DNA of 64,000 nt from a virus: the IMG/VR virus record IMGVR_UViG_3300018080_000121, positions 57,293 to 121,292 of that record. One strand, 5' to 3'. Below the pieces are notes generated by a model. The model did no database searches. It worked only from the letters and a program-made list of their open reading frames with translations, and was not told where the DNA came from. This document shows, in pieces, positions 6,225 to 43,357 of the stretch (positions within the stretch are counted from its first letter, which is position 1; the number at the start of each line of letters is the position of its first letter). The position numbers and the translations under genes are program-made.

Positions 6225-6419
6225 ATGCGACGACCCAATCCTTATGGTATTGGTCCAGTTCCAATATTTGATCCATGTGAAAAATGTGTGATTAAAATGT
6301 GTTGCTCATATCTTTGTGAAGAGAAGATCAAATATGAAGGAGCAAAAGTACCACCAATAAAAACTAGAGTATACACGAAAGGAAAAAGAATAAAATGCGT
6401 AAAAAAGCGGATTTCGTAA
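6225..6419 (+). CDS. small Cys-rich protein, PCxxCVIKMCC family
   Basis: DPCEKCVIKMCCSYLC; paralog at 2369. Confidence 0.6.
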   Translation: MRRPNPYGIGPVPIFDPCEKCVIKMCCSYLCEEKIKYEGAKVPPIKTRVYTKGKRIKCVKKRIS

Positions 6420-6730
6420 CCAACAGTAGTTCGACGTCATATATCTTGACGGATAAGGAAGGTAGAATTGATCCACAGGGTAAGATGTTGATCGATTTGA
6501 AGAAGCAAGCGGATCTGACTGTGATTACGACAGAGATCTTGGACGAAATTGAGAAAAATGGATTCTATAAAATTGGTCAGTATTCCAGAATTGAACTGGA
6601 TGAAGGTGAACTTGAAAACGCCAGATTTGTGTTGTCGCACGGCGAGAAGGTTTACTGGATTGATGTATATGACGATCCAGCATGGTTTATTCCCAGTGGA
6701 GTAGTTGCTCAATGTGTAAATGATTATTAG
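6395..6730 (+). CDS. FVTNSSS-tag protein 1
   Basis: N-terminus MRKKADFVTNSSSTSYIL. Confidence 0.75.
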   Translation: MRKKADFVTNSSSTSYILTDKEGRIDPQGKMLIDLKKQADLTVITTEILDEIEKNGFYKIGQYSRIELDEGELENARFVLSHGEKVYWIDVYDDPAWFIPSGVVAQCVNDY

Positions 6731-6738
6731 GAGGGGAA

Positions 6739-7095
6739 ATGAGAAAGAAAGCTGATTTTGTAACGAATAGTTCGTCAACATCTTATATTGTGCATATTCC
6801 AGTTGATTTTACCTTGGATGCACATACAGAAGATATCAAGCAGTCGATTCTTGATTGGGATGGAGAAGTGAATGAAAAACGAATTGAGAAAGTAAAAGAT
6901 CAGCTCCATGAGTTGATGAACTTGAGTGGTCGAATGTATGAGTATGATAATCGCATTGAGATGGTAGCGCTGAGGGATCTATTCCATAAACTAGATTTCA
7001 TAATTGATGGAATTGATGTCGGATCTGATATGGGCGTACTTGTAAATATTAACACACTCAAGGCAAGACAAAAGATCGAAAAGATCGGAGCTTAA
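6739..7095 (+). CDS. FVTNSSS-tag protein 2
   Basis: N-terminus MRKKADFVTNSSSTSYIV; GGAGG RBS. Confidence 0.75.
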   Translation: MRKKADFVTNSSSTSYIVHIPVDFTLDAHTEDIKQSILDWDGEVNEKRIEKVKDQLHELMNLSGRMYEYDNRIEMVALRDLFHKLDFIIDGIDVGSDMGVLVNINTLKARQKIEKIGA

Positions 7096-7096
7096 T

Positions 7097-8101
7097 ATGA
7101 AAGCTATTGTAATAGCGGACATCCATTTGAGTATGTACTCAAATGATCCAGTGGTTGAAGGGATCTCCATGAGACTGTTCTATTTGAATAGTGTCTTGAG
7201 AAGAATCGCAGACTATGCGATTAAACATAAAATTGATATCATCATAATTGCTGGTGATATCTATCACACAAAGAGTTCTATCCATGCGGTTGCTCAGGAC
7301 GTTCTTCTTGAATATGTGAGAGACTATCAGGATCTTCTCTTTTATGTAATTGATGGAAACCATGATATGTCTTCCAAGTCTGGTAAGGGAGTGTCTGGGT
7401 TAAAGTGTTTGGACAATGAACCAAATGTGTATATGATGCACGAGCCAACGATGGTCGAGAACATCTTCTTTGTTCCGTGGAATGCGAAAACGATGGTTGA
7501 GACTGTGAAGAATGGACAAGCTGATTATCTGATATCTCATTTCGGATTAAATGAAGCGATGTTGAATAGCGGAATCTCAATTATTTCTGATCTTGGAATG
7601 AAGGATCTGGCGCATTATAAATGGTGTCTTCTTGGACATTATCACATGCCACAAGAGTTAGGGAATGTGATAATTCCAGGATCAATTATCCAGTTGGATT
7701 GGGGCGAGAAGCATGAGGAGAAACGATTTATAATTCTTGACACAGATAAGCATACGTGGAAGTCTGTTCCTACACAGGGTTATGTTGAACACCATGCACT
7801 TGAACTTACAGATGAAAATAAAGAAGATGTTCTCAAACTCGCGCGTAAGTTGAAAGACAAGGGCCATCAAGTTAAGATTAATCGAATGACAGTCGGTGTA
7901 GATATGGCTGAATTGCAGGATGAGTTTGTGGTAGTTGATAAAGTCGAGAAGGATATCACAAATCGTGGTATTGACTCATCCATGTCAATGTCTGATATCT
8001 TCAAGAGATATATGGAGATTGAAGGAATACCAAAAGAGAAGTGGCCTGCATATGAAGCTATGGCGGTGAAAATTGTGAATACAGCAAGGGAGGGTTTATG
8101 A
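7097..8101 (+). CDS. Mre11/SbcD-like metallophosphoesterase nuclease (T4 gp47-like)
   Basis: IADIH, AGDIYH, GNHD, SHFG, LLGHYH, PGS motifs. Confidence 0.92.
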   Translation: MKAIVIADIHLSMYSNDPVVEGISMRLFYLNSVLRRIADYAIKHKIDIIIIAGDIYHTKSSIHAVAQDVLLEYVRDYQDLLFYVIDGNHDMSSKSGKGVSGLKCLDNEPNVYMMHEPTMVENIFFVPWNAKTMVETVKNGQADYLISHFGLNEAMLNSGISIISDLGMKDLAHYKWCLLGHYHMPQELGNVIIPGSIIQLDWGEKHEEKRFIILDTDKHTWKSVPTQGYVEHHALELTDENKEDVLKLARKLKDKGHQVKINRMTVGVDMAELQDEFVVVDKVEKDITNRGIDSSMSMSDIFKRYMEIEGIPKEKWPAYEAMAVKIVNTAREGL

Positions 8102-8613
8102 AATTCCAAGTAAAATTTGAGGCTCCTGGTGACGGAAGATTGACAGAGGAACCTCCTGGAGAGATTGGAATTGACATGGTGGATATGATTAGAGATGAAC
8201 TCAATCGACCAAATCTTGACGTAGATCTGATTAATGGAGAGATTCAATGTCCAAGATATCGTTCATCTTACTATGTCAATGTTACTGAAGCAACAGCGAG
8301 AACCATCTCATTATTCTCGGGAAGAAACAAGGTAACAGTTAAAGTTCCAGATAGCTATCTGTCAAAATATGAGAACTTTATCTTTCGTGAAACCTTCTAT
8401 GATCCGGTGAATAATGTTCTTGAAATGTTTCGGGTATGGGTATTACGGCGACCAAAAAAATTGACTTGTGTATTTCCCCACTATGAACTAAACGAACAGT
8501 GGTTGATTGAGGATTGGAAGGAAGCTGGATGTCCTCTCAAGTGGGGATTCAATGGGGAAAATGGTTCGAACGCAAAGAAGTTAGCGGAGAAGAAGAATGG
8601 GAAAAAAAGTTGA
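8098..8613 (+). CDS. hypothetical protein
   Basis: 171 aa, coupled to the nuclease stop (ATGA overlap). Confidence 0.6.
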   Translation: MKFQVKFEAPGDGRLTEEPPGEIGIDMVDMIRDELNRPNLDVDLINGEIQCPRYRSSYYVNVTEATARTISLFSGRNKVTVKVPDSYLSKYENFIFRETFYDPVNNVLEMFRVWVLRRPKKLTCVFPHYELNEQWLIEDWKEAGCPLKWGFNGENGSNAKKLAEKKNGKKS

Positions 8614-8899
8614 TCTAGGTGGGACAGAAAAAGGAGCGCCACCTCAAAAACAAAAGATGATCTATTTTGGTATACCCACAACCATTGCGATGATGATGGA
8701 CATATACACATACGAACCTGCAAAGAGATATGTTGACGCAATGAAACAAACTCTACTCAGTTCTGTAAGTCTCAAAGAGTTGAGAAAAGAGATTTGTACA
8801 ATGTTTGGTATGAAGAGTATGAGAAAACTCAAAAAGCAACGAGAGAACCAGGCGAAAATCTTAACTGCGATCTTTGGTGATCGTATATGGGGTGAATGA
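8597..8899 (+). CDS. hypothetical protein
   Basis: 100 aa in the same operon. Confidence 0.55.
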   Translation: MGKKVDLGGTEKGAPPQKQKMIYFGIPTTIAMMMDIYTYEPAKRYVDAMKQTLLSSVSLKELRKEICTMFGMKSMRKLKKQRENQAKILTAIFGDRIWGE

Positions 8900-11107: not shown

Positions 11108-11263
11108 ATGTGGTTTATTAAATCTCCACCCGGACTAGAAGCTGCTGCAGGAATTTTGAACGGGGTTATAGCAACGTTTTATCTACTTGTTATAATCGTT
11201 GGATTTTACTTTATCGGGTTAACATTTTGGGAGGTTCTATGCGTCGTAAGTGCGATTTCGTGA
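11108..11263 (+). CDS. small membrane protein (51 aa, not in ORF track)
   Basis: MWFIKSPPGLEAAAGILNGVIATFYLLVIIVGFYFIGLTFWEVLCVVSAIS; long hydrophobic stretch; fills the gap. Confidence 0.45.
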   Translation: MWFIKSPPGLEAAAGILNGVIATFYLLVIIVGFYFIGLTFWEVLCVVSAIS

Positions 11264-11835
11264 CAAATAGTAGCTCCGTGAGTTTCGTCTTGAAAGGTAA
11301 GGCTTGTGGTAGGGTTCCGACCATAGCTGATGATCTTCCAAAACTTCTTAGAGAAAGATTTCCTAGAAGTGACCATTATCCAGAAGAGGGCGCTGTAGTA
11401 TATGCTAGCTCCTATGCGATAGTGAAGGATGGTGTTCCATCTGAAGATGATGAGGATGCTCCACAGGGTAGTTATGAAATGACCCTTATAAATACCCATG
11501 ATTGGGATGAAGAACATGACGATGTAGTTGGTGTCACGGCGATTACCATTAATGTAGTAAGCCCTCTTATCTATGTTCGAAATCATCCGGTTATTATGGA
11601 TAGGGTGTTGTTTCTTCTAAATCAAATTCTTCCAAAAGATTCTCATGGCGAATTGTACTTCGCTCAAATGCCTACAGAAATGGAAGGTGGGGGATTAGAT
11701 GGTGGTGATCCAATGGGACCGTATGAATGGTCATTTGATATCTTGAGGTGTGAAACTAAATCTGGAAAGATAAAAATTAAAGATGGAAACCCACGGGGTT
11801 ATGTGAAATGGGTGAAATGTAAGGAGGAGCAATGA
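11239..11835 (+). CDS. FVTNSSS-tag protein 3
   Basis: ATG 11239 behind GGAGG; MRRKCDFVTNSSSVSFVL. Confidence 0.75.
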   Translation: MRRKCDFVTNSSSVSFVLKGKACGRVPTIADDLPKLLRERFPRSDHYPEEGAVVYASSYAIVKDGVPSEDDEDAPQGSYEMTLINTHDWDEEHDDVVGVTAITINVVSPLIYVRNHPVIMDRVLFLLNQILPKDSHGELYFAQMPTEMEGGGLDGGDPMGPYEWSFDILRCETKSGKIKIKDGNPRGYVKWVKCKEEQ

Positions 11836-12188
11836 TTAAAAAGAAAACTACCGAAATGACAAGAGTTGCTCCTGATTGGGAAGTGTCAATCAAAAGAGCT
11901 GAGAATGGATTCATTGTTACCAGTTATGAAGAGATGCATGGTTGTGATGATGATAACCAAATCTACAAGAAGGCTCAATATGTAATTGAAGATGGAGCAT
12001 TCTTTGAAGAAATCGAATCGCTTTCTGCAGAGTACCAGAGTCTGATAGATGACCATGATGTAGCAATGTATTTTCTATTACATCATATTGCTGAGCACTT
12101 TGGATGTCACTACAGTAAGCATAAGAAAATTAACTTGTATGTCGACTTCGTAGTGAAGGAGGACGATGATGGGATGGAGAGAAAGTAG
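11832..12188 (+). CDS. hypothetical acidic protein
   Basis: GGAGGAG RBS; 118 aa. Confidence 0.6.
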   Translation: MIKKKTTEMTRVAPDWEVSIKRAENGFIVTSYEEMHGCDDDNQIYKKAQYVIEDGAFFEEIESLSAEYQSLIDDHDVAMYFLLHHIAEHFGCHYSKHKKINLYVDFVVKEDDDGMERK

Positions 12189-12438
12189 ATATGGCTTTCA
12201 CATATCTGAATACAATGGAGTTTGGAAGTGGACAGTAAGGGACCAACATGGCGTAGAACTTGCGATGAGTCCACGACATGGGTTTGCATCTGCTGATGCT
12301 GCAGTCGAAGCAGTGAAAGAACTCATAAATTTTATCATTGACAATGGGTTCAATATCCCTGTAACCGTGTACAAAGAAGGATTGGAGAATGATAGACAAA
12401 ATACAAATAGTGAGTTGGCTACTGACGCGGCGGTGTAA
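12166..12438 (+). CDS. YegP/DUF1508-like small protein
   Basis: WKWTVRDQHGVELAMSPRHGFASADAAVEAV fits the YegP pattern (w.w.l...ng..ia.s..y.s...a...i). Confidence 0.5.
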   Translation: MMGWRESRYGFHISEYNGVWKWTVRDQHGVELAMSPRHGFASADAAVEAVKELINFIIDNGFNIPVTVYKEGLENDRQNTNSELATDAAV

Positions 12439-13423
12439 CCTCAAATGTTCCTATTGTGCGATTACCAGGAACTATAAAGGAAAACCAGATCAGTATCCTG
12501 ATATGAAGCACTACTTGGAAAATGAGATGGACACCAAAACAGTGATTGAAATTCTCAGGAGAATAAAGGCTCATAACCCAGATGCATTCCATATTCTTTA
12601 TGGGGGCGAGCCGCTCTTGAGAAAAGATCTTCCGGAGATTGTGAACTTCTGTAACTCAGAAGATATCCATTACACAATCATAACCAATAACTCTGACGAG
12701 GTCCAACCATTACTGGAAAAACTCTTGGTTGAGACCGACTACGTAACTGGTTTGACATCTTCTGTAGATCCTCTAGTTGAATCTGAGGACCCTGAATCCG
12801 ACCGTTATAAGAAATGTGTCGCAGGGTTTAATCGGTTGGGAGAATACAGAGATGTCATTAAAGATGTCGTTGCTGAAATAACCGTTGATAATAACAACGT
12901 TGGACATCTTTATAATCTTGTTGCTATGCTCACAAAGATGGGAGTTAATAGCGATATAACTTTCATTGATATTGCGAAGAGTCCGTACTATGACTTTTCA
13001 AATGTTACAGATGAAGGACTGTTGGTTCCCCAATCGGATGAGTTGAGTCTACAATTTGATAAGATTATAGATGATAAACTCGACGTACATATGGCGGATA
13101 AACTACTCCCAGAAATCTTTAAAATCTTACCGTCGGATATGGATTGTGGTATTGAAAACAATATCCATAACATGACCATTGACGCAGATGGATCAGTAAG
13201 ATTATGTTTGAGAATTCGAGGAGTACAAACTCCAAAATTTAAAGCAATTGATCAGTTTTCACCCGATGGAAAACTTATGGCTGCATCTCTTAGAAAGTTC
13301 ATAAAGCATGATAAAGACATATACTGTAGGGGTTGTAATTGGACCTGTATGTTGATGTCACGGATGCTTTCAAGGAGAAAAGATACAGTCCAGAATCTAG
13401 TCCATCGGGATAGGAGGAAATGA
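12389..13423 (+). CDS. radical SAM enzyme with C-terminal SPASM/Twitch-type Cys motifs
   Basis: CNLKCSYC, GGEPLL, C...TIDADGSVRLC...CRGCNWTC. Confidence 0.88.
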   Translation: MIDKIQIVSWLLTRRCNLKCSYCAITRNYKGKPDQYPDMKHYLENEMDTKTVIEILRRIKAHNPDAFHILYGGEPLLRKDLPEIVNFCNSEDIHYTIITNNSDEVQPLLEKLLVETDYVTGLTSSVDPLVESEDPESDRYKKCVAGFNRLGEYRDVIKDVVAEITVDNNNVGHLYNLVAMLTKMGVNSDITFIDIAKSPYYDFSNVTDEGLLVPQSDELSLQFDKIIDDKLDVHMADKLLPEIFKILPSDMDCGIENNIHNMTIDADGSVRLCLRIRGVQTPKFKAIDQFSPDGKLMAASLRKFIKHDKDIYCRGCNWTCMLMSRMLSRRKDTVQNLVHRDRRK

Positions 13424-21321: not shown

Positions 21322-24033
21322 ATGCCATCTTTGTTAAACTATAACCAGTTCTGTGAAGAACTAAAAGAAGTTACAACAACAAAGATTATTGACAAGAAGA
21401 AGTTCCATGCTGAAGGTCTGTTCTCTGAACAGATCTTTGGTCCTGTTAAGAACTATACTTGTCAATGTGGGACATATTATGGAATCTCTGGAGCAGGTGG
21501 TACGTGTAAAGATTGTGGGGTCGACGTTGTAAATAGTAATGAACGACGTCGAAGATTTGCTAAAATTGTATTACCAATACCAGTGGTCAATCCAGTCTTT
21601 TATGATCTGTTGATTGACCTTGGTGGTAATATGATTAAAGATGCGATCACCCAATTGCTTAGAGATGAAAAAAGTGTCCTATATTGGCATGAGGATGAAG
21701 AAGAATTTAGGATCACAGATGAGGAAAATATAGAAGCTGGTACCGAGATTTTTAGAGGTACCGCTGCTGTCAAAGAAATGATCCAAGTTCTTGCAGATAA
21801 ACTTGCGGAAGAAGACGCTGAGGGATGGGATATAGTTCTCGATAATATCGATCAATTGGTTATAGAATATGTCATTGTATTACCTCCGGACCTAAGACCT
21901 GCATCTAGAGGTGTTACACAAAATGACCAAGTGGTTGATAAAATCAATAGATTCTATACTCAGATCCTAACAAAGAAAGAAGCTATGAGGGATACAATTT
22001 TGGATGTCAGACGAGATCCAACTTTGTATTACAGCTATGCAAAACAACTCCAGAAGGATGTCAATGAGTTATACACGCATATTCTTGATAAGTTGTCAAA
22101 AAAGGAAGGGTTGATTCGCGGAAATATTCTTGGGAAGAGAATAGATTTCTCGGGTCGAGCTGTCATTGTGCCATCACCGACACTCAATTTTGATGAGTGC
22201 TCACTTCCGTATGCTATGTTTCTAGAATTATTCAAACTGAGAATTGCTAAAAAGTTAATTCAGTTGGAAAAATTCAAACTTCTGAATGACGCCATTGACT
22301 TTGTAGATGAATGTATAGAGCTGAAAATTCCGGTTCTATTTAAGATCTGTGAAGAGATGGCGGAAGGTGAAGTATGTTTGTTAAATAGACAACCCTCGCT
22401 CCACAAATTAAGCATGTTGGGATACTACATTAAAGTATCTTTGGATAATGTAATTAAGATACACCCATTGTCATGTCCACCATTCAATGCTGACTTTGAT
22501 GGTGACCAGATGGCGGTATACATCCCAATCACACCGGAGTCAAAACAAGAAGTAATTGATAAACTCCTGGTTACTAGAAATTTAAGTAACCCATCAAATG
22601 GAAGTTTGTCAACTGTTCCAAGCCAAGATATGGTTCTTGGAGTTTACTCATTAACAACTGGATACTTCAAAGAATTTAGTGCCTTGATAGATTGTAAAGG
22701 AGAGCAAATAACTGAAGGTATGAAACTTTTCAACGATTGCTTACCTGAAGATTATCCTCTTGTAAATGAGTCTGTTGGTGGAAAACGTTTGGTAGAAATA
22801 CTGAACGATATAAACACAAGATACGAACCTGAAGAAGTAATACGAGTCCTTGATAACATTAAATTTCTTGGGTTTAAGTACTCAACATTATTTGGTGCAA
22901 CTCTTTCTCTGAACCATTGTTATATGGAAGAGGCGGTGAACATCAGGGAAGGGTTATATGAGAGTGACTCGATTGTTGAACAGGTGAGTAAAGTATCAGG
23001 CGATGAAACAACTCAATTACTGAAAGACAACTTCCATTATTCTTATATGATTGAGTCTGGAGCAAGAGGTAGTTGGGATCAGGTTCGACAAATAGTCTTA
23101 ACCAGAGGGTTTATCTCAAACTTTAATGGCGAGATTATTACAGAACCTATCAAGAATAGTTTCATCAGAGGATTAACCCAAAAAGAGTTCTTCAACTCTA
23201 CGTATGGTAGTAGAAAAGGTCTCCTTGACGTTGCGTTGAACACTGGAACTTCAGGTTACCTTTCTAGAAAATTAATCTTCGCTTGCGCAAATCTCCAGAT
23301 AGATCAAAGTTTGGATGATTGCGGAACCCAAGACTTTCTTGATGTGTATGTTGATACACCAAAGAAAGCAAAAATGTTGGTTGGTAAATGGATGAAGACT
23401 GATGGTGGACTCATGTTAATTACCGAAGACAATTGTATGACTTTGGTCAGCGAGTTGATCCAAGTTAGGAGTCCAATCTTATGTCAATCGGAAAGATTAT
23501 GTTGTAAATGTTACGGTGAGTTGTATAAGACTCTTGATACAAGATTTGTAGGAGTTATAGCAGCGCAATCCCTTGGAGAATGTAATACTCAGTTAGTATT
23601 GAGAACATTCCATACGAGTGGTGTAGCACAGCTAAATAAGGACAACGATGCAGAAGATATGAAGCAACAAGATATTGTTAGTGATCTATCAACTGTATCC
23701 AGACTCCTACACCAGTTCAATAAGAGTACAAAATATGATGAGTTGACTCATAATCTTTTCACAAATTACAACCATCGACGTACAATACATCATACACATT
23801 TTGAGTGTGTTGTGTCACAGCTTATGTGGAGTGGAGTTCAAAAGTGGAGATTGGTAAAAGATCGAGACAAAGCAAAGCTTGAATTCCACAGTGTCCAGAC
23901 AGTTCCATCTTATGAATCGTGGTTGATGGGACTGGCGTTTTCAAATCCAAAGAAACACATCATTAAAGGTATCTTACATTCTGGTTTGTATAAGGGTGTA
24001 ATGGACAAGATCTTATGTGGTGAAAGCGTATAA
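21322..24033 (+). CDS. rpoC: phage multisubunit RNA polymerase beta'-like subunit
   Basis: EGLFSEQIFGP, Zn-finger CQCG..CKDC, GKRIDFSGRAVIVP, LNRQPSLH, catalytic NADFDGDQM, PSQDMVLG, SGARGS, NTGTSGYLSRKL, trigger loop TQLVLRTFHTSG. Confidence 0.96.
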   Translation: MPSLLNYNQFCEELKEVTTTKIIDKKKFHAEGLFSEQIFGPVKNYTCQCGTYYGISGAGGTCKDCGVDVVNSNERRRRFAKIVLPIPVVNPVFYDLLIDLGGNMIKDAITQLLRDEKSVLYWHEDEEEFRITDEENIEAGTEIFRGTAAVKEMIQVLADKLAEEDAEGWDIVLDNIDQLVIEYVIVLPPDLRPASRGVTQNDQVVDKINRFYTQILTKKEAMRDTILDVRRDPTLYYSYAKQLQKDVNELYTHILDKLSKKEGLIRGNILGKRIDFSGRAVIVPSPTLNFDECSLPYAMFLELFKLRIAKKLIQLEKFKLLNDAIDFVDECIELKIPVLFKICEEMAEGEVCLLNRQPSLHKLSMLGYYIKVSLDNVIKIHPLSCPPFNADFDGDQMAVYIPITPESKQEVIDKLLVTRNLSNPSNGSLSTVPSQDMVLGVYSLTTGYFKEFSALIDCKGEQITEGMKLFNDCLPEDYPLVNESVGGKRLVEILNDINTRYEPEEVIRVLDNIKFLGFKYSTLFGATLSLNHCYMEEAVNIREGLYESDSIVEQVSKVSGDETTQLLKDNFHYSYMIESGARGSWDQVRQIVLTRGFISNFNGEIITEPIKNSFIRGLTQKEFFNSTYGSRKGLLDVALNTGTSGYLSRKLIFACANLQIDQSLDDCGTQDFLDVYVDTPKKAKMLVGKWMKTDGGLMLITEDNCMTLVSELIQVRSPILCQSERLCCKCYGELYKTLDTRFVGVIAAQSLGECNTQLVLRTFHTSGVAQLNKDNDAEDMKQQDIVSDLSTVSRLLHQFNKSTKYDELTHNLFTNYNHRRTIHHTHFECVVSQLMWSGVQKWRLVKDRDKAKLEFHSVQTVPSYESWLMGLAFSNPKKHIIKGILHSGLYKGVMDKILCGESV

Positions 24034-24049: not shown

Positions 24050-27000
24050 TTGAACATCATTAATCCGCACTACAAATTGCGTGAACAGAACATTTTCTCC
24101 ATAAGAGACCAAGAATATGCAGCGCTCCTAGAGACAGTAAGACAAATTCTAATCCCGGCTGAAGAGCTGGGATTTGAACTTACTGACTGTAGGATAAAAG
24201 ATTCGAGGTTCTCAACTGGAGAGATTTCTAGAACTTTAAAACAGAACCTAGTCATTCGATTACAAAAGGGAGCGTCAAAGATTGACCTCTCAATGCAAAT
24301 TCCAAAGCTCGTTGATGGGAATTATATCATCATAAACGGGAGGAAGAAAATTCCCCAATTTCAATTGTTTGATATTCCAGTTGTTACAAGGGGAAAGAGT
24401 ATCAAAATCAGGACTAATGTAGCGACAATTATGATCATTGAGCAGAAGGAAGCTCCCTTTACATACATCAGTATTCTTGGGAGAAAAGTCCCGTTGTTTC
24501 TGGTTATCTTTGGTTACTATGGAATTGAGCCTGTTGCGCAGAGGTTTAATCTTCCAACACTTCAAGTAAGCGATACCAACCTGGACACAATGTATGACCG
24601 ACTGCTTTATGACATGAAAATGTTCTATGATAGTTCTCGGGGTACTACACAAGATGATATCATCAAAGAAATTGGTAGATATTACTCAAAGTACAATGCT
24701 AGAGTTAAGGGTGAAGATTTGATGTATGCTCTTGACTTAATCCTTGATACAGATGTAATGTCTGCTTGCTTCTTTAGGACCGGGTCCATTCTAGAAGAGA
24801 TTCTAGATGTAATGCAAAACGGTCCATTGGATGATACGTTAATTACAAACAAGAGGATTCGATGTTTTGAGTATGTCATCCTCGCAAAGGTCTCTAAAGC
24901 TGTATTTGATCTCTGTATGTCAAATCGTACAGCTAGACAACCGAAATTCAATGTAAACTCAACTGCGATTTTATCTGAGTGTAATGTATCGGATATAGTC
25001 CAGTTTGACTTTTCTATTAATCCAATCGACGAGCTGACCAAACTAAGTAGAACTAGTCTTGTAGGTCCTGGTGGTTTTAACAGACAAAATGTACCAGAGC
25101 ATCTAAGAGATATTATGCCTACAATGTTTGGACGGTTATGTCCAGTTGACACACCTGACCGAGATAATTGTGGAGTTCTCCAGAACTTAGTTCCAAATGC
25201 AATTTTAGATGACAATTTAAAGTTTTCTGAAGAGTATTTGGAGAAACAACCAATCTCAATAGCGGTGTCAATGGTTCCATTTCTTGAGCACGATGACCAA
25301 ACTCGACTCCAGATGTCAGCTTCACAGATGCGTCAAAGTATTATGTTAAAGAACTTCGACCAACCAATGATCCAGTCTGGTTGTGAAGGGTTGTATACAG
25401 ACAAGACACAATTTGTAAAGGTAGCAAAGAAAAATGGAGAAGTCGTACATCTCGATCACAACTATCTCATCTTGCTTTATGATGACAAGACCGTAGATAT
25501 ATTCGATATCTCATATCGAAAGATTTACATCTCAAACCTTGATGTATACAAAGTTTATGTACAACAAGGGGATAAAGTCAAAGCAGGAGATATTCTGGCT
25601 GAGAGTTATTTTACAGATAATGGAAAGATTAACATTGGTAAAAACCTGTTAACTGCTGTTGCGGAATACTATGGGTATAACTATGAGGATGGAATTGTCC
25701 TATCTGATAGAGTTGTAAAAGAGGGAATGTTCACATCTGTACATTTCATAGATTTATCCTTTACCCTTCCGCCAAATAAAGTTCTCCTAAGTCTTTCACA
25801 AGATGAGTATAAACCCCTTCCAGGTGTAAGGGAAAGGGTTTCTAAAGGAGAACCATATATGATTACCAAGGAAATGCCTTCTATACAGATGGATTACAAA
25901 AGCATTTTTAAGAAGGAACGTCCGGTATTAGCTAAATCGGATATGATTATCACCGAGGTAAACATGTTTGCAAACTCATGGAATAAAGAAATACCACAGT
26001 TTGATAAATGGATGGAAAAGAAGTTAACGCAACAGCAAAAGCAAGAAGAGAAAATTGCTAACATCGTTGGGGAATATCTTTCCAAAGAAGATACAACTAG
26101 ATTCGTAAGGGATCATGATCTTGCGAAATATGGAAATATTGGAAAGTATAAATTCAAAGGTGAATACATTAACGGTGTCCGAGTAGAGATGTTTGGAATC
26201 TTCTTCCGACCAATCCAAATCGGTGACAAAATTGGAAATCGTCATGGGAATAAGGGAGTTGTATCTACTATTGTACCACAAGAGAAAATGCCACAACTAC
26301 CTGATGGGCGACACGTAGATATTTGTATTAATCCGCTTGGTATTATAAGCCGGATGAATATTGGGCAAGTTTATGAACTCCATTTAGGCATGGCTCTATA
26401 TGACTTGAGGGAAACTCTGAAAGCAATTCTTGATGGACGGGAAAAGAATTCAGCAGAATTAGATGACGCAAAACGTCAAGAACTTGCAAAAAGATTTCTC
26501 CTTGGATTTATTGAGTTGGTTGATAAAACTGACGAACATTGGTATTATGACCAATATGTAGAACATCTTCCAGAAACTATCGACGAGAAGTTTATTGATA
26601 ACATTGTTCTCCTACAACCTCCATTTGAGTCGATGAATATGTCTGAGATGAAGGAAGCATTGGAGTACACAGGCACAAAGTTTGAGTACCCACTATTTGA
26701 ACCGATGGCTGGACAGAACATTCAGAATGAGATTGCTGTGGGTTATTTGTACTTCTTTAAGATGGTACACATTGCTGAGACTCGTCTTGCTGCAAGAGGA
26801 ATTGGATCCTACACAAGGAAGACACTTCAACCTTTAGCAGGAAGAAAGAATCGAGGCGGTCAGAGAATGGGTGAAATGGAAACAGGGTGTCTCATTGGAC
26901 ATGACGCTCCAGTTAACTTAGCAGAATGTCTGACAACCAAGTCAGATTGTACTGATAAGAAGAACCAATATATCCGAGATGAAATTGACACGGGTATGAA

Positions 27001-27082
27001 ACTGGAAGAGGAAGGTGACAATGTAGCAGAATCTGTCAAACTTCTGAAAGCGTATCTTACGACAATAGGAGTAAGGATGTGA
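24050..27082 (+). CDS. rpoB: phage multisubunit RNA polymerase beta-like subunit
   Basis: [80 protein letters not shown]; TTG start at 24050 behind GGAGG. Confidence 0.96.
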
Positions 27083-35692: not shown

Positions 35693-36688
35693 ATGATTAA
35701 GGAAATCAAAACAAGTAAATATAGGATTTCATTTAACACAGAAACCGGGGAAGAAGAATTGGAAGGGATTAATGGAAACGACGATCCCTTTTCTCTGGAA
35801 TTTCCGAGTATGCTGGACATTGGAATTATGGGTAGCTGTCCGAATAAATGTAAGATGTGTTACCAAGGAGATAAGGTGGAGCCACATATGACTCTGGATC
35901 TGTTCAAACAAATCATTGACGAAGCAAAAGATGGTACATGTCAATGTGCGTTGGGTGGTCGTGGAGATCCAAATCTTCATCCGCAATTCGAGGAGATCAT
36001 TAAATACGCATGTGAAAATGGTGTGATTCCAAACTACACTACCAGCGGTAATGGTCTTACAGATGAACAAATAGAATCATCCAAAAAGTATTGCGGAGCT
36101 GTTGCTGTTAGCGACTATGGAAAGGAGTTCACATTCTCAGCTTTAAACAGACTGATGGATGCAGAAGTCAAAACAAATATTCATCTAGTCTTTTCTGCGC
36201 CAAACTTCATGAAGTCGATAGCCATTTTAGATGGTCAAGATGCATGGAGTGGTCGTGTCAATATAGAGAAGTTAAATGCTGTGATATTTCTCTTGTTTAA
36301 GCCACAAGGTCGTGGTAGAGATTTGGAGAAATGGATTCCAACTGATCTCATGCTGGAATTATTCAGCTATGGAATTGCACTTCCAAAAACGAAATTTAAA
36401 GTTGGGATGGATAGCTGCTTAGTAAACCATATCATGAGGTTTAGAAAACTCAACAAGTTGGAACAGGAGTACGTTGACACTTGTGAGGGTGCAAGGATGA
36501 GTTGTTACATTACACCAGATGGGAGACTTGTTCCTTGTTCATTTGGAAACCATGATGAATATGGAAGTGATATTAAACATCACGGAATAAGGAGAGTATG
36601 GAATGACGGACTTGCATTCAAAGGATTCAGAAAGACTCTTAGATCAAGACCAAATCAATGCCCTTTTGAAACGGACGGTTGGCGTTAG
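35693..36688 (+). CDS. radical SAM enzyme with SPASM/Twitch-type C-terminus
   Basis: CPNKCKMC, ALGGRGDP, TCEGARMSCYITPDGRLVPCSF...NQCP. Confidence 0.9.
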   Translation: MIKEIKTSKYRISFNTETGEEELEGINGNDDPFSLEFPSMLDIGIMGSCPNKCKMCYQGDKVEPHMTLDLFKQIIDEAKDGTCQCALGGRGDPNLHPQFEEIIKYACENGVIPNYTTSGNGLTDEQIESSKKYCGAVAVSDYGKEFTFSALNRLMDAEVKTNIHLVFSAPNFMKSIAILDGQDAWSGRVNIEKLNAVIFLLFKPQGRGRDLEKWIPTDLMLELFSYGIALPKTKFKVGMDSCLVNHIMRFRKLNKLEQEYVDTCEGARMSCYITPDGRLVPCSFGNHDEYGSDIKHHGIRRVWNDGLAFKGFRKTLRSRPNQCPFETDGWR

Positions 36689-36875
36689 AGCAATTGGTCA
36701 TGGGTTGATTGGTCTTGGAAAAGGATTAGCTTCCCTTGGTATTTGCGCAGTAGCACTATATGTCATCAAATATCATTATGAAGATATAAGTCTATTTTGG
36801 ACAGCGGTGATGGGAGGTGGTCTTATCGCGGGCATTTGGAAGTTTGATTGGGATTGGAATGGAGGGATATTTTAA
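36603..36875 (+). CDS. small membrane protein
   Basis: two Gly-rich hydrophobic segments; the true start may be internal. Confidence 0.5.
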   Translation: MTDLHSKDSERLLDQDQINALLKRTVGVRAIGHGLIGLGKGLASLGICAVALYVIKYHYEDISLFWTAVMGGGLIAGIWKFDWDWNGGIF

Positions 36876-36887: not shown

Positions 36888-37166
36888 ATGAAGAAAAAAC
36901 TAGACTTTGTTACCAACAGTTCGTCATCCAGTTTCGTAATAAGTTTATGTGATCTATCTCCAGTCCAGCAATTTGCTATCATGAATTATAAAGATTTTTG
37001 TGAATGTTTGGGTTGGGATGATTTCTATATGGCTGGCGACGACAACTGGAACATCGTATCTGGCGTATCCGAAATAAAGGGTACTACTTTCATGGACAAT
37101 TTTGATATGTACCAGTTCTTCGAGAGACTTGGAATTGACATGGAGAAAGTGAGGTGGAGTTCATGA
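36888..37166 (+). CDS. FVTNSSS-tag protein 4
   Basis: MKKKLDFVTNSSSSSFVI. Confidence 0.75.
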   Translation: MKKKLDFVTNSSSSSFVISLCDLSPVQQFAIMNYKDFCECLGWDDFYMAGDDNWNIVSGVSEIKGTTFMDNFDMYQFFERLGIDMEKVRWSS

Positions 37167-37531
37167 GAAAGAGATTAGACTTTGTTACCAACAGCTCAAC
37201 TTGTAGTTTTCTAATCGTTGGATGGGAGTTGCATAAAAGTCAACTTCCGGACAAATATAAAGACGAAGATGGTTACTTCGATTGGGAACGGACAATGGAT
37301 GACCAGGAGAGATTACATATTGAGGTTATGTTAGGTCGTGAGATGGGCGCCAAAGATGACGACCATATGATTGTTGGTGTTGACTGGGGTGGTGGAGATA
37401 TTGAAGATGATACCAAAGAAATCGCTATGAAAGATCTCCTTGAAGTCCAAAACAATGGTGAAATCAGAGAACTTTTTGGGATTCCAAACGGCGTAGATGC
37501 GTCTGTATTTTTCGGAATAAGGATGTGTTAA
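37163..37531 (+). CDS. FVTNSSS-tag protein 5
   Basis: ATG 37163; MRKRLDFVTNSSTCSFLI. Confidence 0.75.
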   Translation: MRKRLDFVTNSSTCSFLIVGWELHKSQLPDKYKDEDGYFDWERTMDDQERLHIEVMLGREMGAKDDDHMIVGVDWGGGDIEDDTKEIAMKDLLEVQNNGEIRELFGIPNGVDASVFFGIRMC

Positions 37532-37532
37532 C

Positions 37533-38084
37533 ATGAAACGAAAAGCCGATTTCGTAACTAATAGTTCGAGTACATCATTTACATTTATATTCAAAGGAAC
37601 TGATAAGAAACATCTCTTTGATCTTCTCCTAGCCAGAAAACAACTATTTGATCTACATTACGAGTCTGAGTGGGATGATGAAGGAACAGTTCATGAATGC
37701 ACCGTAGAGGATGTGATTGCTGCACTTGACAAGTTCTTGAGTGGCAGACTCTCCAGTCTGGACTTTAGTGGAAAGGTTGAATATATCAATGACCTTCTAG
37801 CTAGGAGGACTGCAGATATTCGATCTTGGGAAGAAATGTATGAGGATGATGTGGAGGATTGGGAGCAGAAGTGGATTACTGATAGTATCTCTGAGATAAA
37901 ACAAATCATCGGATTAATTAAGGGCGCTAAAGATCGAGGTCTTCTCTCAGTCGTTCAAATGGGTTTTGGAGATAACCACGGCGAAGTTTGGGGCGATGGA
38001 CTCGGAGTCGTAATGGATTATAAAGGAAGGAGGATATTTGTGAATGACGACGATCTCGTCATATTTACAGAACAAAATAGGTGA
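37533..38084 (+). CDS. FVTNSSS-tag protein 6
   Basis: MKRKADFVTNSSSTSFTF. Confidence 0.75.
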   Translation: MKRKADFVTNSSSTSFTFIFKGTDKKHLFDLLLARKQLFDLHYESEWDDEGTVHECTVEDVIAALDKFLSGRLSSLDFSGKVEYINDLLARRTADIRSWEEMYEDDVEDWEQKWITDSISEIKQIIGLIKGAKDRGLLSVVQMGFGDNHGEVWGDGLGVVMDYKGRRIFVNDDDLVIFTEQNR

Positions 38085-38087: not shown

Positions 38088-38453
38088 ATGAAAAAGAAAG
38101 CAGATTTCGTAACTAATAGTTCCTCAGCGTCATTTGTGATGATCTTGCAAGCTACAAATGAGAATATTGATGTTGAGGACTTTCGAAAGAACTTTAACGA
38201 GTACTTAGAACACTATATGAAAGAAACTACGTACTCAAGAGAAGGTAAGAACAACATGCACTTTTGGGAAGCACTCCAGGTTCATGCTGGAGCCGTTCCA
38301 GGTGTTTTCAAGGTGTTAGATGGTACGTCAATGTACAATTGTCAAGATGACATTCCAAGGTACATGAGAGATATGTTAGTGAGACATCACATTGGCGGAT
38401 TTTTGGATTACGGGTTTAAACTAATTGACTTTTCAGTCGAACGAGACAGTTAA
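38088..38453 (+). CDS. FVTNSSS-tag protein 7
   Basis: MKKKADFVTNSSSASFVM. Confidence 0.75.
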   Translation: MKKKADFVTNSSSASFVMILQATNENIDVEDFRKNFNEYLEHYMKETTYSREGKNNMHFWEALQVHAGAVPGVFKVLDGTSMYNCQDDIPRYMRDMLVRHHIGGFLDYGFKLIDFSVERDS

Positions 38454-40342: not shown

Positions 40343-40597
40343 ATGTGGGGTAGAATAACAACTGAATGTCCTGAATGTAGCGAGGAAGCTTCAGATATCT
40401 ATAGAGTGGGTGATTGTAAATATATTGTATGTACTCATTGTGGCTTAGTGATATATGCTGAGGAAACATACATAGTTCGTAATGCCTTACATCTCGATAG
40501 ACTAAAAGGACTTACACCAGATAACATTACACTTAACGACTTTGAGACAGTTTCTGAAGGAACAAGTGGATCAATCTTTATCGGACAAGAATGTTAG
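40343..40597 (+). CDS. zinc-ribbon protein
   Basis: CPEC...YIVCTHCG. Confidence 0.6.
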   Translation: MWGRITTECPECSEEASDIYRVGDCKYIVCTHCGLVIYAEETYIVRNALHLDRLKGLTPDNITLNDFETVSEGTSGSIFIGQEC

Positions 40598-40608: not shown

Positions 40609-41016
40609 ATGAAAAGGAAAGCTGATTTTGTTACAAACTCAAGTAGTACTTCTTTTATTGCGATGGGGGTTGAATTTAATATCCCTGACGAAATGAAACA
40701 AACTGCGTTTGACAGAGCAGTTGCGTGGCATAAAGAAAAGGGATATAGCTTTGACTATAAGTCTGTAGATGAACTCTTTGAATCTGATTACGAAGGAATT
40801 GAAGCAGTTAGGTCGATGCTCGAAGAGTTGGGTCTTGAATGTGATTCCGACCCGTATGGTGATAGGGAATTGTTCGTAGGAATGCACCCGCAAAAAATGA
40901 ATGATGACGAAACACTACGTGAATTCAAACAACGAATTCTTGATCTTCTTAACCAGTTTGGAAAATTTACAATGGAGGACATTGGTTGGTTGGAAGATTG
41001 TAGATGGGATGGATAA
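40609..41016 (+). CDS. FVTNSSS-tag protein 8
   Basis: ATG 40609; MKRKADFVTNSSSTSFIA. Confidence 0.75.
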   Translation: MKRKADFVTNSSSTSFIAMGVEFNIPDEMKQTAFDRAVAWHKEKGYSFDYKSVDELFESDYEGIEAVRSMLEELGLECDSDPYGDRELFVGMHPQKMNDDETLREFKQRILDLLNQFGKFTMEDIGWLEDCRWDG

Positions 41017-41028: not shown

Positions 41029-41640
41029 ATGGAACCAGTAGTATTAAATATCGCAGCTGGAAAAATGGACCCGTTGGGATTGAAGTCGCCCCCAGCCCAC
41101 TATGTGGTAAATCTTGACACGATGTATTATAGAGCATCTTCTCCAGAAGATGTTGAAAGTATCTACAGTTTATGGATACGTCAAGTTCCACATATTGACA
41201 GGAAAAAGATAGTACATTGTAATGAGGATGCGTTCAGGTTTATGGAACGAACTAAACTTCAATTTGACGTCATTACTTGCTATCGATTTCTTGAACATGT
41301 GAGTTTTACACAAGTTCCATATTTCATCTATCTTATGTCGACATGTCTTAAGATAGGCGGAATTGTGGACATCATTGTTCCGAATTATACAACGTTGGCG
41401 AGAATGGTTATTAATGAGGTACCTGGTGGTCCGAATTTTGAAGCGGACAACATATTACTGACTACCGAGTTACTCAATGAGCCCGGATGTCCTCATGCGT
41501 CAATATGGACAGCCCTTCGAGCAAAATATTTCTTCCATCTCGAGGGGAGATTTGAAGTAATCAATGAGACAATTACAGAGAGTTTCGAATATGATGGACG
41601 AGATATCTATCTCAGATTTCAAGCGAGGAGGATTCGATAA
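41029..41640 (+). CDS. class I SAM-dependent methyltransferase
   Basis: VLNIAAG, NLD, FDVITCYRFLEHV, LKIGGIVDIIVPN. Confidence 0.8.
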   Translation: MEPVVLNIAAGKMDPLGLKSPPAHYVVNLDTMYYRASSPEDVESIYSLWIRQVPHIDRKKIVHCNEDAFRFMERTKLQFDVITCYRFLEHVSFTQVPYFIYLMSTCLKIGGIVDIIVPNYTTLARMVINEVPGGPNFEADNILLTTELLNEPGCPHASIWTALRAKYFFHLEGRFEVINETITESFEYDGRDIYLRFQARRIR

Positions 41641-41840
41641 TGGAACAATCACATTGGATTATCGATCCCACTTGCAGTAGATGTAATGGAATGGCGGAAC
41701 GAGTATATGTAAGTCCAACGAAAAGAACAATTACCTGCTTCGACTGTGGGTTAGTTAGAGTTGAAGAATTGCGGACGTGGGAATGCACATTAGAATACTT
41801 TCCTGAAGGGAGTTCAAATGGCGAAAAAGAAGCAGCCTAA
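41640..41840 (+). CDS. zinc-ribbon protein
   Basis: CSRC...ITCFDCG. Confidence 0.6.
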   Translation: MEQSHWIIDPTCSRCNGMAERVYVSPTKRTITCFDCGLVRVEELRTWECTLEYFPEGSSNGEKEAA

Positions 41841-42144
41841 GAAGCAAGGCGTTTGTAAACGTTGTGGAGCAGATATACGAAACACAAATCGACTGGTATT
41901 CTGTTCAGATAGATGCTCCCAAATTTGGTTTCGTGACAACCACAAAAAGGAAAGAAATAAATACAAAAAGAAAAACTATATGGACTTTAAAAATGGGAAA
42001 TCATGGGTTGCATGCAAATGTCCCAAGTGTGAAAAGATTCATAAGGTTAAAATGAAGTGGATCGGAAATGGAATGCCGAGAAAATTCTGTAAGAAGTGCA
42101 TTACACATCTTGGTCAGATTTACAGCGGAGCGATTGCTGCATAG
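41818..42144 (+). CDS. double zinc-finger basic protein
   Basis: CKRC...FCSDRC and CPKC...FCKKC. Confidence 0.6.
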   Translation: MAKKKQPKKQGVCKRCGADIRNTNRLVFCSDRCSQIWFRDNHKKERNKYKKKNYMDFKNGKSWVACKCPKCEKIHKVKMKWIGNGMPRKFCKKCITHLGQIYSGAIAA

Positions 42145-42149
42145 GTTAG

Positions 42150-42326
42150 CTGGGATCCTACCTGTACACGGCCTCTGCAGGTAGGTTGCATGGGGGTTTC
42201 ATGCCACGTCTGCTAGCTATGCGTGAGTCACAGATAGTCCCGTGCGTAAAGTTGTTTTGCTACTGTGACGTCCTTTGGGAAAGATGCTCGGGGGTCTAAT
42301 CCTTTAACAATAGCTAGTAACCCCCA
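42150..42326 (+). ncRNA. candidate structured RNA
   Basis: intergenic, GC-richer than its flanks, at least five helices (see findings). Confidence 0.45.
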
Positions 42327-42349
42327 ACTTCTTATGAAAAGGAGTGAAT

Positions 42350-42496
42350 ATGTTTAAATGGTTAAAGAAATTGTTTAAGAAAAAACCATCTATATATGAT
42401 TCGCCAATGATGTGTCCAGATTGTGGTTGTGATATGTTGATGGTTGCAGATCCAGAAGTTCACTGGAAATGTATTGGTTGTAAGAGAGGATGGTAG
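42350..42496 (+). CDS. small zinc-ribbon protein with amphipathic basic N-terminus (48 aa, not in ORF track)
   Basis: AAGGAG RBS; MFKWLKKLFKKK...CPDCG...WKCIGCKRGW. Confidence 0.6.
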   Translation: MFKWLKKLFKKKPSIYDSPMMCPDCGCDMLMVADPEVHWKCIGCKRGW

Positions 42497-42497
42497 A

Positions 42498-42992
42498 ATG
42501 AATGAAATCGACTGGGATGATCCCATAGTTCTAGCAGAACAATCAGAAGAGTTGCGGCTGTCTCACGCAATAGCGATCGCAGCTGAAGCTCATAAGTATA
42601 CACTTGATAAAGGAGGACGCCCATATATACTCCACCCACTTACAGTTATGTTTCGATTTACTGATCCTATTGATCAAATGGCAGCTGTACTACACGATCT
42701 CATAGAAGATACATCCTATACTCTTGATGATTTATGGAGATTTGGTTTTGGAATACAGGTCGTAAATACGGTAGATGCGTTGACAAGACGAGAAGGTGAA
42801 ACTGTAAGGGAGTATTATGATAGATTGAAAGGAGATGAAAGAGCAGTAAGAATTAAGATGGAAGATCTAAGTCACAATATGGAGGTGATAAGATTTAAAA
42901 GAATGTTAGAAAAGAAGGACATTAACCGACTCAAAATGTACCATAAGATGTGGTTAGAACTATGGACATTCAAGGAAGGAGTGATAGCTTGA
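42498..42992 (+). CDS. HD-domain hydrolase, RelA/SpoT hydrolase-only type
   Basis: AAEAH...DKGGRPYILHP, AAVLHDLIEDT, ALTR, IKMEDLSHN. Confidence 0.85.
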   Translation: MNEIDWDDPIVLAEQSEELRLSHAIAIAAEAHKYTLDKGGRPYILHPLTVMFRFTDPIDQMAAVLHDLIEDTSYTLDDLWRFGFGIQVVNTVDALTRREGETVREYYDRLKGDERAVRIKMEDLSHNMEVIRFKRMLEKKDINRLKMYHKMWLELWTFKEGVIA

Positions 42993-43357
42993 AAAAGAAA
43001 CTTGATTTCGTAACCAACTCATCATCTACATCTTTTATCATTGGAGATATGAGAGGTGACATTGATGACGCAATTGGGAAGGTGACCATTACAGTAAATC
43101 TCCGAGACTTCCTGGAGAAATCAATCGAAACAAGAGAGGAACTCCACGACTTTTGGGAATACTGGTATGGGGATTTTGAAACTCGAACAGAGGACTACGA
43201 AAAGTGTTGTAAGATTATTGACGATGGCGGTGTAATCCACGTCCTCAACGTCAGTAATGAGGGAGAGGTAATAGAGGCAGTCATTCAAGATGAAGGATTG
43301 AATGACATGGATTTGCCAGATCATATTATTGTGATTCAAGGAGAAGGAGGTTATTAG
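42989..43357 (+). CDS. FVTNSSS-tag protein 9
   Basis: TTG 42989 behind AAGGAG; (M)KKKLDFVTNSSSTSFII. Confidence 0.75.
   Translation: MKKKLDFVTNSSSTSFIIGDMRGDIDDAIGKVTITVNLRDFLEKSIETREELHDFWEYWYGDFETRTEDYEKCCKIIDDGGVIHVLNVSNEGEVIEAVIQDEGLNDMDLPDHIIVIQGEGGY

Follow-up and report, generated by a model that had tools for sequence, protein, structure and literature searches.

The viral DNA analyzed here, 64,000 nucleotides long and called the window below (positions 57,293 to 121,292 of IMG/VR virus record IMGVR_UViG_3300018080_000121), encodes nine proteins with unrelated bodies that all begin with the same short tag, M-[KR]-[KR]-[KR]-x-D-F-V-T-N-S-S-[ST]-x-S-[FY]. Two genes for radical SAM (S-adenosylmethionine) enzymes, rSAM_A and rSAM_B, lie among the tagged genes and had gone unnoticed in an earlier note on this DNA. 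Fetching further loci, both by the tag and by the enzyme, establishes a two-component module of great breadth, consisting of an enzyme and its tagged clients, and it is very probable that tag and enzyme interact functionally. We also infer, with slightly more confidence than doubt, that the enzyme recognizes the tag and installs a covalent change within it; the site of this change and the biological role proposed below carry the same reservation.

Reciprocal linkage of the tag and a radical SAM enzyme family

A six-frame scan of the window returned exactly nine matches to the tag motif, and a motif scan of the whole 121,292-base contig, of which the window is the 3′ half (37% G+C), returned the same nine copies and no others. 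All lie on the + strand, each directly after a start codon, in agreement with the earlier note, whose nine tagged open reading frames (ORFs) are all present with the starts it had assigned. The register of the tag sets the start downstream of the longest-ORF start in four genes (those at 11239, 37163, 40609 and 42989); the last of these begins with TTG, preceded by a GGAAGGAG ribosome-binding site. Residues D6, F7, V8, T9, N10, S11, S12 and S15 are invariant as peptide in the nine copies. Over codons 5-16, in contrast, identity at the third position is only 37%, compared to 73% for positions 1 and 2, and the serine codons of the tag alternate between the AGY and TCN families. Since the codons are scrambled while the peptide is invariant, selection must act on the tag peptide and not on the DNA, as had been claimed before.

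Loci were fetched by three independent routes: as relatives of one tagged protein (T37533; tagged genes are named by their start position in the window), with a degenerate DNA pattern of the tag, and by enzyme homology alone. The viral loci with T37533 relatives carry three to six tagged paralogues each, with an rSAM_B or rSAM_A orthologue wherever the contig extends far enough; being syntenic kin, these loci are weak evidence for linkage. The tag pattern yielded at least 113 viral contig stretches and at least 119 prokaryotic genome stretches, and the counts that follow for these loci are among the matches listed. A homologue of rSAM_A or rSAM_B was present in 67 of 123 viral loci, in 28 of the 33 that extend 3 kb or more to both sides and in all 11 that extend 5 kb or more, and the start codon of the tagged gene abuts the stop codon of the enzyme gene in about 25 viral loci. 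In the prokaryotic loci, the enzyme gene was directly adjacent in 90 of 111 cases, with most misses at locus edges. The hosts include Bacillota, Bacteroidota, Thermodesulfobacteriota, Campylobacterota, Myxococcota, Acidobacteriota, candidate phyla radiation (CPR) bacteria, methanogens and Thermoplasmatales; with so many phyla represented, the linkage is phylogenetically independent.

The reverse experiment gave a similar picture. The best 80 of 308 viral contigs encoding an enzyme relative provided 79 new loci, and at least one strict tag was found within 6 kb of the enzyme gene in 62 of them. Across these enzyme-fetched loci (813 kb), 119 tags lie on the strand of the enzyme gene and none on the opposite strand. 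In the 2.85 Mb of fetched loci as a whole, an ATG, TTG or GTG codon is found exactly six codons before the Phe in 518 of 522 motif occurrences. This fixed distance to a start codon, together with the strand split, excludes chance occurrence of the motif.

Among 448 unique complete tagged proteins, the information content of the tag is about 4 bits per position over 18 residues and about 0.5 bit at residue 19. Conservation reaches positions that the search pattern had left free (K2, [KR]4 and [IV]17-18), giving a wider 18-residue consensus, M-K-x-[KR]-x-D-F-V-T-N-S-S-S-x-S-[FY]-[IV]-[IV]. A profile search through all of 1.84 billion cluster representatives yielded 20,657 proteins at E ≤0.001, in nearly all of which the match begins at the first residue, and the tag occurs in phages, bacteria, archaea and plasmids. 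The few internal matches are almost all cases of two adjacent tagged genes merged by gene calling. In the two-tag database proteins P0136 and P0138-P0143 the internal copy restarts with M-K, and these are probably merged genes, possibly from recoded phages; P0137 may carry a true internal copy, without an M-K start. A word-indexed protein search with tagged residues 1-40 recovered close orthologues only, and a literature search with the tag motif strings found nothing relevant.

The linkage to the enzyme bears on a first alternative, in which the Asn-Ser-Ser-Ser run would cleave or rearrange by itself (through pyruvoyl-type serinolysis or an Asn-mediated cleavage), the radical SAM gene being a mere neighbor with a separate role. 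Ser-rich sites beside Asn are chemically prone to such reactions, as in pyruvoyl enzymes and Asn cyclization, and the location of the tag at the very N-terminus in 518 of 522 cases would suit this explanation. However, it does not account for the two-way, same-strand and often translationally coupled linkage to one enzyme family across domains of life, and a cleavage within the first 12 residues would free no more than a tiny peptide. Moreover, pyruvoyl enzymes have a common fold and active-site environment, whereas the tagged bodies are unrelated. We therefore consider self-processing very unlikely.

A second alternative is a sorting signal, to the phage capsid or to a secretion or compartment system. 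The capsid-targeting sequence of phage T4 is a short shared N-terminal peptide on small, rapidly diverging internal proteins, and here, too, several small, fast-evolving phage proteins have a common short N-terminus. The tag nevertheless shows no sequence likeness to the T4 signal, and it lacks a hydrophobic core, a twin-arginine motif and a Glu-containing cleavage site of the type used by the T4 prohead protease. It is also frequent on plasmids and in the chromosomes of bacteria and archaea, where it is tied to the enzyme gene and stands in part inside defense cassettes without virion genes (see below), and the tagged genes of this phage are placed among its replication and recombination genes, outside the structural module. 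The analogy to T4 drawn in the earlier note is thus unsupported, and a sorting role is extremely unlikely.

The two enzymes of this phage show no similarity to each other by BLASTP. Both carry the three-Cys motif for the [4Fe-4S] cluster that cleaves SAM. The conserved Cys residues in the C-terminal part of rSAM_A are C253, C273 and C313-x2-C316-x3-C320, and Pfam SPASM gave no match to this protein. In rSAM_B, the match to the SPASM model passes the cut-off, and the radical SAM Cys residues plus C242, C264, C282 and C323 are invariant in 171 B-type homologues. Twitch domains bind one auxiliary [4Fe-4S] cluster and SPASM domains two; four invariant auxiliary Cys fit a single auxiliary cluster, which suggests that the B-clade domain is twitch-like and not a full SPASM. 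B-type enzymes also have a conserved N-terminal extension of 45 residues, with invariant G19, P32, P38 and D42. A sequence search of the PDB gave no match for rSAM_B, and weak matches to the shared radical SAM core only for rSAM_A. The closest curated models, all far under their cut-offs, were MftC, PqqE, WgkB, ScmE/F and NirJ2, which are maturases of peptides, proteins or cofactors, and a tungsten-enzyme maturase; neither the enzyme clade nor any of the tagged proteins has a curated model. A relationship to the prokaryotic viperins (pVip) was considered and rejected, since the PADLOC matches span the radical SAM core only (about positions 4-150 of profiles of 257-262, E 1e-7 to 1e-13) and the NCBIfam viperin model scores 20-47 bits vs. 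a cut-off of 180.

A tree of 185 enzymes, calculated with FastTree, contains a long-branched clade A (10 members, including rSAM_A), two prokaryotic clades with the canonical Cys motif (13 and 17 members from many phyla), an expanded-motif clade (63 members, mainly from Bacillota and phages, with C-x7-C-x6-C) and a viral clade (82 members, including rSAM_B). The tagged gene lies upstream of the enzyme gene in clade A and in the two prokaryotic canonical clades, while tags lie downstream in the viral clade; the position of T11239 upstream of rSAM_A is typical of clade A. Linkage to the tag spans every clade, even the very divergent clade A, and the tag itself varies with the enzyme: at position 4, K accompanies the viral and A clades in 95 of 97 cases and R the expanded-motif clade in all 93, while the prokaryotic canonical clades go with T or V at position 14 in 33 of 34.

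The expanded motif deserves a comment of its own. About half of the tag-linked enzymes have GHC-x7-C-x6-C-YQ in place of CxxxCxxC at the same position (loci L070, L115, L144, L150, L188, L197 and about 55 more); these enzymes miss PF04055 at E < 0.001 and all fall in one clade.

Tagged bodies and their relatives in STAND cassettes

The bodies of the nine proteins (residue 19 on) are acidic, with isoelectric points (pI) of 4.05-5.22, and show no similarity to one another by BLASTP (best E 0.14), which upholds the earlier description of them as acidic and mutually unrelated. The nine proteins had no match in Pfam or NCBIfam, and PHROGs gave only a faint match to phrog_7397, from profile position 1. 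This diversity extends to the fetched loci, where BLAST sorted 439 tagged bodies, from about 60 to 777 aa long, into 92 clusters, 50 of them singletons. In profile-profile comparisons of 19 viral body clusters, 2 of 171 pairs reached at least 90% probability, and none of these was between families of this phage. Pfam searches with one representative per body cluster identified LRR_5 (2), BRCT (2), HIRAN (1) and TIR_2 (1) domains, the rest giving no match. The presence of the tag on LRR, BRCT, HIRAN and TIR proteins argues for a portable module and not a strand of one shared fold. No fusion of the tag to the enzyme was seen among the 448 tagged proteins.

AlphaFold2 models were made with family alignments for T40609 (predicted local distance difference test, pLDDT, 86.1; predicted template modeling score, pTM, 0.77) and T37533 (pLDDT 89.8, pTM 0.86). 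Tag residues 1-12 are coil in the T40609 model, with strand 1 beginning at residue 13, and residues 1-10 are coil in the T37533 model (pLDDT 39). Thus, in both models, the most conserved part of the tag (residues 1-10/12) is coil with a pLDDT of 39-49, and only its x-S-[FY]-[IV]-[IV] end is predicted to belong to the fold. The two models differ in the order of their secondary-structure elements. Comparison with the PDB by Foldseek and VIA-align revealed no convincing neighbor for T40609 (best Z 4.9), and for T37533 a match (Z 8.6) covering a generic helical hairpin only.

These data allow a third alternative to be weighed, in which the tagged proteins form one divergent paralogue family and the tag is its best-conserved structural strand or a translation-optimized start. 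M-K-K starts are common and favor translation, residues 13-18 form strand 1 in both models, and a few body clusters are remotely homologous to each other, all as this explanation would have it. However, the variety of domain architectures and lengths, the 169 of 171 cluster pairs without profile similarity and the two models, which differ in strand and helix order and match no known fold, do not fit a single family; the most conserved residues, 1-12, are unpacked in the models, and the scrambled codons exclude a start signal at the nucleotide level. The scenario that the earlier note had itself set against its interpretation, one fold with the tag as a structural strand, is largely excluded by the LRR, BRCT, HIRAN and TIR architectures and by the coil at residues 1-12, and we regard descent from one ancestor as highly unlikely.

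Clustering of the ORFs neighboring the tagged genes in the 119 prokaryotic loci identified two recurrent neighbors, a large protein in 24 loci and an untagged protein of about 134 aa in 17. The large proteins contain NACHT/nSTAND3 modules of the STAND (signal transduction ATPases with numerous domains) type, with SMEK or trypsin-like N-termini, and match Avs2 in PADLOC with E values down to 4e-94. STAND genes were found in 18 of 46 loci whose tagged partner belongs to either of two 'cassette' body families, compared to 0 of 56 loci with other bodies; none was found in the window or in any viral locus. On Agrobacterium tumefaciens plasmid pAt2, for example, the order is a SMEK/Avs2-like gene, a 131-aa protein starting MKIKLDFVSNSSSTSF, and a radical SAM protein. 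One of the nine proteins of this phage is connected to these cassettes, since the T42989 family aligns with the tagged cassette partner (body cluster 1) in hhalign with a probability of 95.4% (E 1.7e-8).

In the STAND cassettes, the untagged protein of about 134 aa lies directly upstream of the tagged partner of about 138 aa (L157, positions 1490-1888; also L142, L204, L206, L212, L235 and L244). Paralogy of the two small proteins was not established, the comparison reaching an E value of 0.033 only.

The layout of the cassettes, an Avs2-type gene, a tagged protein of about 130 aa and a radical SAM gene, is shared with the anti-phage operon KpAvs2-Avap1-Avap2 of Klebsiella pneumoniae, which encodes the STAND NTPase Avs2, the radical SAM protein Avap1 and the small protein Avap2 (Bechon et al. 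2024, Nat Commun 15:9860, PMC11564622). Avap1 is needed for protection from T2 and dispensable against SECphi18, whereas Avap2 is essential and binds Avs2 constitutively; no viperin-type nucleotide product was found for the operon, Avap1 has no pocket the size of a nucleoside triphosphate (NTP), and the roles of Avap1 and Avap2 are stated as unknown (PMC11564622). The equivalence of this operon to the tag cassettes is one of gene architecture only. PF19902 (DUF6375), the marker used for Avap2 by HHpred in PMC11564622, gave no HMMER match on the tagged ORFs of five genomes or on those of pAt2, and none in 401 genomes of one phylum; it should be noted that the published criterion is a profile-profile comparison. 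The published account mentions neither an N-terminal tag nor phage homologues (PMC11564622), and the phage enzymes described here differ in having nine unrelated clients and no STAND gene. The statement in the earlier note that no functional description is known is to be qualified in one respect, since the bacterial cassette form has the layout of the published KpAvs2-Avap1-Avap2 operon.

The phage and its nine tagged genes

The tagged genes and the two enzyme genes of the window are listed below. Distinctive features are the array of nine clients, the fact that a single genome encodes enzymes from two widely divergent clades, and the presence of a client related to the bacterial cassette partner.

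Positions in the window of the nine tagged genes and the two radical SAM genes
Gene	Length (aa)	Position	Strand	Features
T6395	111	6395..6730	+	body pI 4.4; singleton in body clustering
T6739	118	6739..7095	+	directly upstream of SbcD/gp47-like gene
T11239	198	11239..11835	+	tag variant ...NSSSVSF; ~550 bp upstream of rSAM_A
rSAM_A	344	12389..13423	+	PF04055 E 4.5e-13; CNLKCSYC, CxxxCxxC at C16/C20/C23
rSAM_B	331	35693..36688	+	PF04055 E 3.8e-9; PF13186 SPASM E 1.4e-5; CPNKCKMC, C49/C53/C56
T36888	92	36888..37166	+	heads four-gene run, 200 bp downstream of rSAM_B
T37163	122	37163..37531	+	tag variant NSSTCSF; start overlaps T36888 stop
T37533	183	37533..38084	+	AlphaFold2 model alpha/beta with long helical hairpin
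T38088	121	38088..38453	+	ends tight run T36888-T37163-T37533-T38088
T40609	135	40609..41016	+	AlphaFold2 model a small alpha/beta fold
T42989	122	42989..43357	+	TTG start; body a remote homologue of the STAND-cassette partner

Orthologues of T36888 were found in 15 other loci. Small ORFs without a family match lie between T11239 and rSAM_A (11832-12188, 118 aa, and 12166-12438, 90 aa, both +). The gap before T36888 is occupied by a 90-aa ORF with two hydrophobic stretches (36603-36875, +). This ORF overlaps rSAM_B at the 3′ end of that gene, in a different frame, and could encode a small membrane protein whose start lies further downstream. Four small zinc-ribbon-like ORFs with paired CxxC motifs (40343-40597, 41640-41840, 41818-42144 and 42344-42496, all +) are interspersed among the tagged genes, and similar Cys pairs occur in the bodies of some tagged proteins from other genomes.

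Besides a terminase and a topoisomerase, the phage, which is large and uncultured, encodes an SbcCD-like nuclease and a two-subunit RNA polymerase of its own. It is far from cultured phages. A megablast search of cultured phages with this region and a tblastn search with T40609 gave no match. The RNA polymerase consists of adjoining, slightly overlapping genes for cellular-type large subunits, first a β′-like protein (21322-24033, +; 903 aa, Rpb1 domains 1-5) and then a β-like protein (24017-27082, +; 1021 aa, Rpb2 domains 3, 6 and 7). Both subunits are unsplit and much shorter than bacterial RpoC and RpoB, which is unusual at this phage size.

Relatives of the enzyme are also encoded by cultured phages. 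In Vibrio phage D479 (OZ195776.1, L129), a tagged gene starting MKIRNGFVSNSSSSSF... (5134-5532) lies 1.4 kb upstream of a radical SAM gene (6893-8098), with a homing endonuclease inserted just behind the enzyme gene; D479 could serve as a model for experiments. A radical SAM/SPASM protein that is 27-29% identical to rSAM_B is encoded by cultured Pseudotevenvirus and T4-like Klebsiella phages (about 170, plus Escherichia phage RB16, where it lies at NC_014467.1, 90403-91557, locus L128). The RB16-type phages, with a 28%-identical protein, were dropped as candidates for the system for lack of a tag within 7 kb.

A proposed handle for radical chemistry on whole proteins

The explanation we favor is that the tag is a portable handle that would mark unrelated whole proteins as clients of a dedicated radical SAM family with an auxiliary Fe-S (SPASM/twitch) domain; in this phage, rSAM_A and rSAM_B would serve the nine clients. 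The flexible first dozen residues of the tag may enter the active site of the enzyme, with the S-[FY]-[IV]-[IV] segment aiding binding as an extended strand. The 5′-deoxyadenosyl radical would then abstract a hydrogen within the D-F-V-T-N-S-S-S stretch, leaving a covalent change in the tag, which could be a cross-link or else an oxidized side chain or Cα, and the modified N-terminus would be needed for the function of the variable bodies. On the chemistry we can only speculate; the invariant F-V-T and N-S-S-S residues could undergo cross-linking of an aromatic residue to Cβ, known from three-residue cyclophanes, oxidation of Ser in the manner of anSME (described below), or epimerization. The setting would be phage-host conflict, with one prokaryotic clade of the pair built into Avs2-type STAND defense cassettes, and the small, acidic phage clients would most plausibly be host-takeover or counter-defense factors.

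A close parallel is the maturation of RiPPs (peptides made on the ribosome and modified after translation) by radical SAM/SPASM-twitch enzymes such as StrB/SuiB (streptide), AlbA/SkfB (sactipeptides), WgkB, PqqE and MftC (PMC5682303, PMC8326336), which have the same radical SAM core and C-terminal auxiliary-cluster domain. The leader/core logic is also shared, with an enzyme gene beside genes that have a conserved recognition sequence and a hypervariable remainder, and the RiPP maturases are the best, though weak, NCBIfam similarities of the tag-linked enzymes. Some differences should be noted. Folded proteins of 60 to more than 700 aa take the place of short peptides as clients here; what is conserved is the presumed site of modification and no leader to be cut off; and in the B clade no more than four auxiliary Cys are conserved, with the cut-offs of the curated families missed widely. 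VMAP systems, in which small FxSxx peptides accompany SPASM enzymes (Kaur et al. 2020, PMC7159879), were also considered and are a different system. With these qualifications, the core of the earlier reading, a leader or recognition sequence, is borne out by selection at the peptide level and placement on unrelated proteins, and of its options the best supported is the RiPP-like one, with the tag as the substrate sequence of a modifying enzyme, by reciprocal linkage to a radical SAM/SPASM-twitch family; the reactions it named (dehydration, formylglycine-like oxidation, pyruvoyl-type cleavage) are hypothetical.

Modification of whole proteins through a short motif also has a precedent. The radical SAM/SPASM enzyme anSME/AtsB (anaerobic sulfatase-maturating enzyme) acts on a Ser or Cys within a short motif of many sulfatases. 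It resembles the system proposed here in having many whole-protein clients per enzyme, recognized by a short conserved motif (PMC5491770), but this motif, (C/S)-x-(P/A)-x-R, lies inside the members of one family, the sulfatases, whereas the tag is N-terminal and on unrelated proteins. Its seven-Cys SPASM binds two auxiliary clusters, while clade B has just four conserved auxiliary Cys. Sulfatase maturation itself was rejected as an identity for the system: the tag is without (C/S)-x-(P/A)-x-R, no anSME model is found among the NCBIfam matches, and no sequence relationship was detected.

The main competitor is docking without modification, in which the tag would tether proteins to the enzyme or to a third partner, the enzyme acting on a nucleotide, nucleic acid, small molecule or host protein, and the tagged proteins would be interchangeable sensors, regulators or specificity adaptors. 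The genomic coupling fits binding as well as it fits catalysis, and the bodies include sensor and effector domains typical of conflict systems (LRR, TIR, BRCT, HIRAN). The small KpAvs2 partner is constitutively bound to Avs2 and, against one phage, does not need the radical SAM protein (PMC11564622), and the weak PADLOC matches to the viperin core could be read in the same direction. These matches, however, reflect the shared radical SAM core only, and neither viperin-type nucleotides nor an NTP-sized pocket were found for Avap1 (PMC11564622). In phages, bacteria and archaea alike, N-S-S and D-F-V-T are conserved almost without exception, more strictly than a docking strand usually is. The number and location of the clients also point to turnover and not to stoichiometric complexes: there are nine for two enzymes in this phage and up to seven per enzyme elsewhere, which fits catalysis better than 1:1 docking, and, while five client genes here are no more than about 1.5 kb away from an enzyme gene, the other four are 3.9 to 6.3 kb from the nearest, so that the enzymes must act in trans. 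On balance we think docking unlikely, but with an appreciable chance of being right, both for the tether itself and for the adaptor roles of the tagged proteins.

A number of observations weigh against modification of the tag by the enzyme. No recurrent protease or transporter was found in the 119 prokaryotic loci, which sets the system apart from the classical RiPP pathways with export, and no RiPP recognition element (RRE) domain is evident. Of the 17 viral loci that have the enzyme and no tag, about 15 do have several kb of flank, and four contigs of this kind are without any tag, although they are only 4-7% complete fragments. The distant enzyme relative of the RB16-type phages likewise has no tagged neighbor in the interval searched. 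Shared ancestry is a confounder of the co-variation between tag and enzyme clade. Since tag residues 13-18 lie in strand 1 of the folded body in the two models, their conservation could be partly structural, and access of the enzyme may need an unfolded or nascent client. Lastly, the small KpAvs2 partner, if tagged, would have an activity independent of the enzyme, the radical SAM protein being dispensable against one phage.

Modification of the tag can be taken further, to a version that we hold rather improbable, in which the phage array is a counter-defense battery. The two enzymes would modify the handle on nine early proteins, and handle and enzyme would be the very pair that NLR-like (Avs2-type) immune cassettes of bacteria employ for their small partner. 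The array would copy or hijack the chemistry of a host immune adaptor, with T42989 as a decoy. If true, this would reveal a new class of enzyme-installed protein modification common to both sides of the phage-host conflict.

The tag, the enzyme clade and the phage arrays are absent from the literature searched and from Pfam, NCBIfam and PADLOC, and the cassette form is in print only as the KpAvs2 accessory genes, without a mechanism. If our explanation is correct, the system would be a protein-level counterpart of RiPP maturation, in which one radical SAM enzyme services many unrelated folded proteins via an 18-residue handle, and it would span about 20,000 protein clusters in phages, bacteria and archaea. 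It would provide a concrete hypothesis for the unexplained Avap1 and Avap2 accessory proteins of Avs2 immunity, and the tag could serve as an enzyme-addressable N-terminal handle. For phages, it would point to a large unexplored set of early proteins that rely on radical chemistry.

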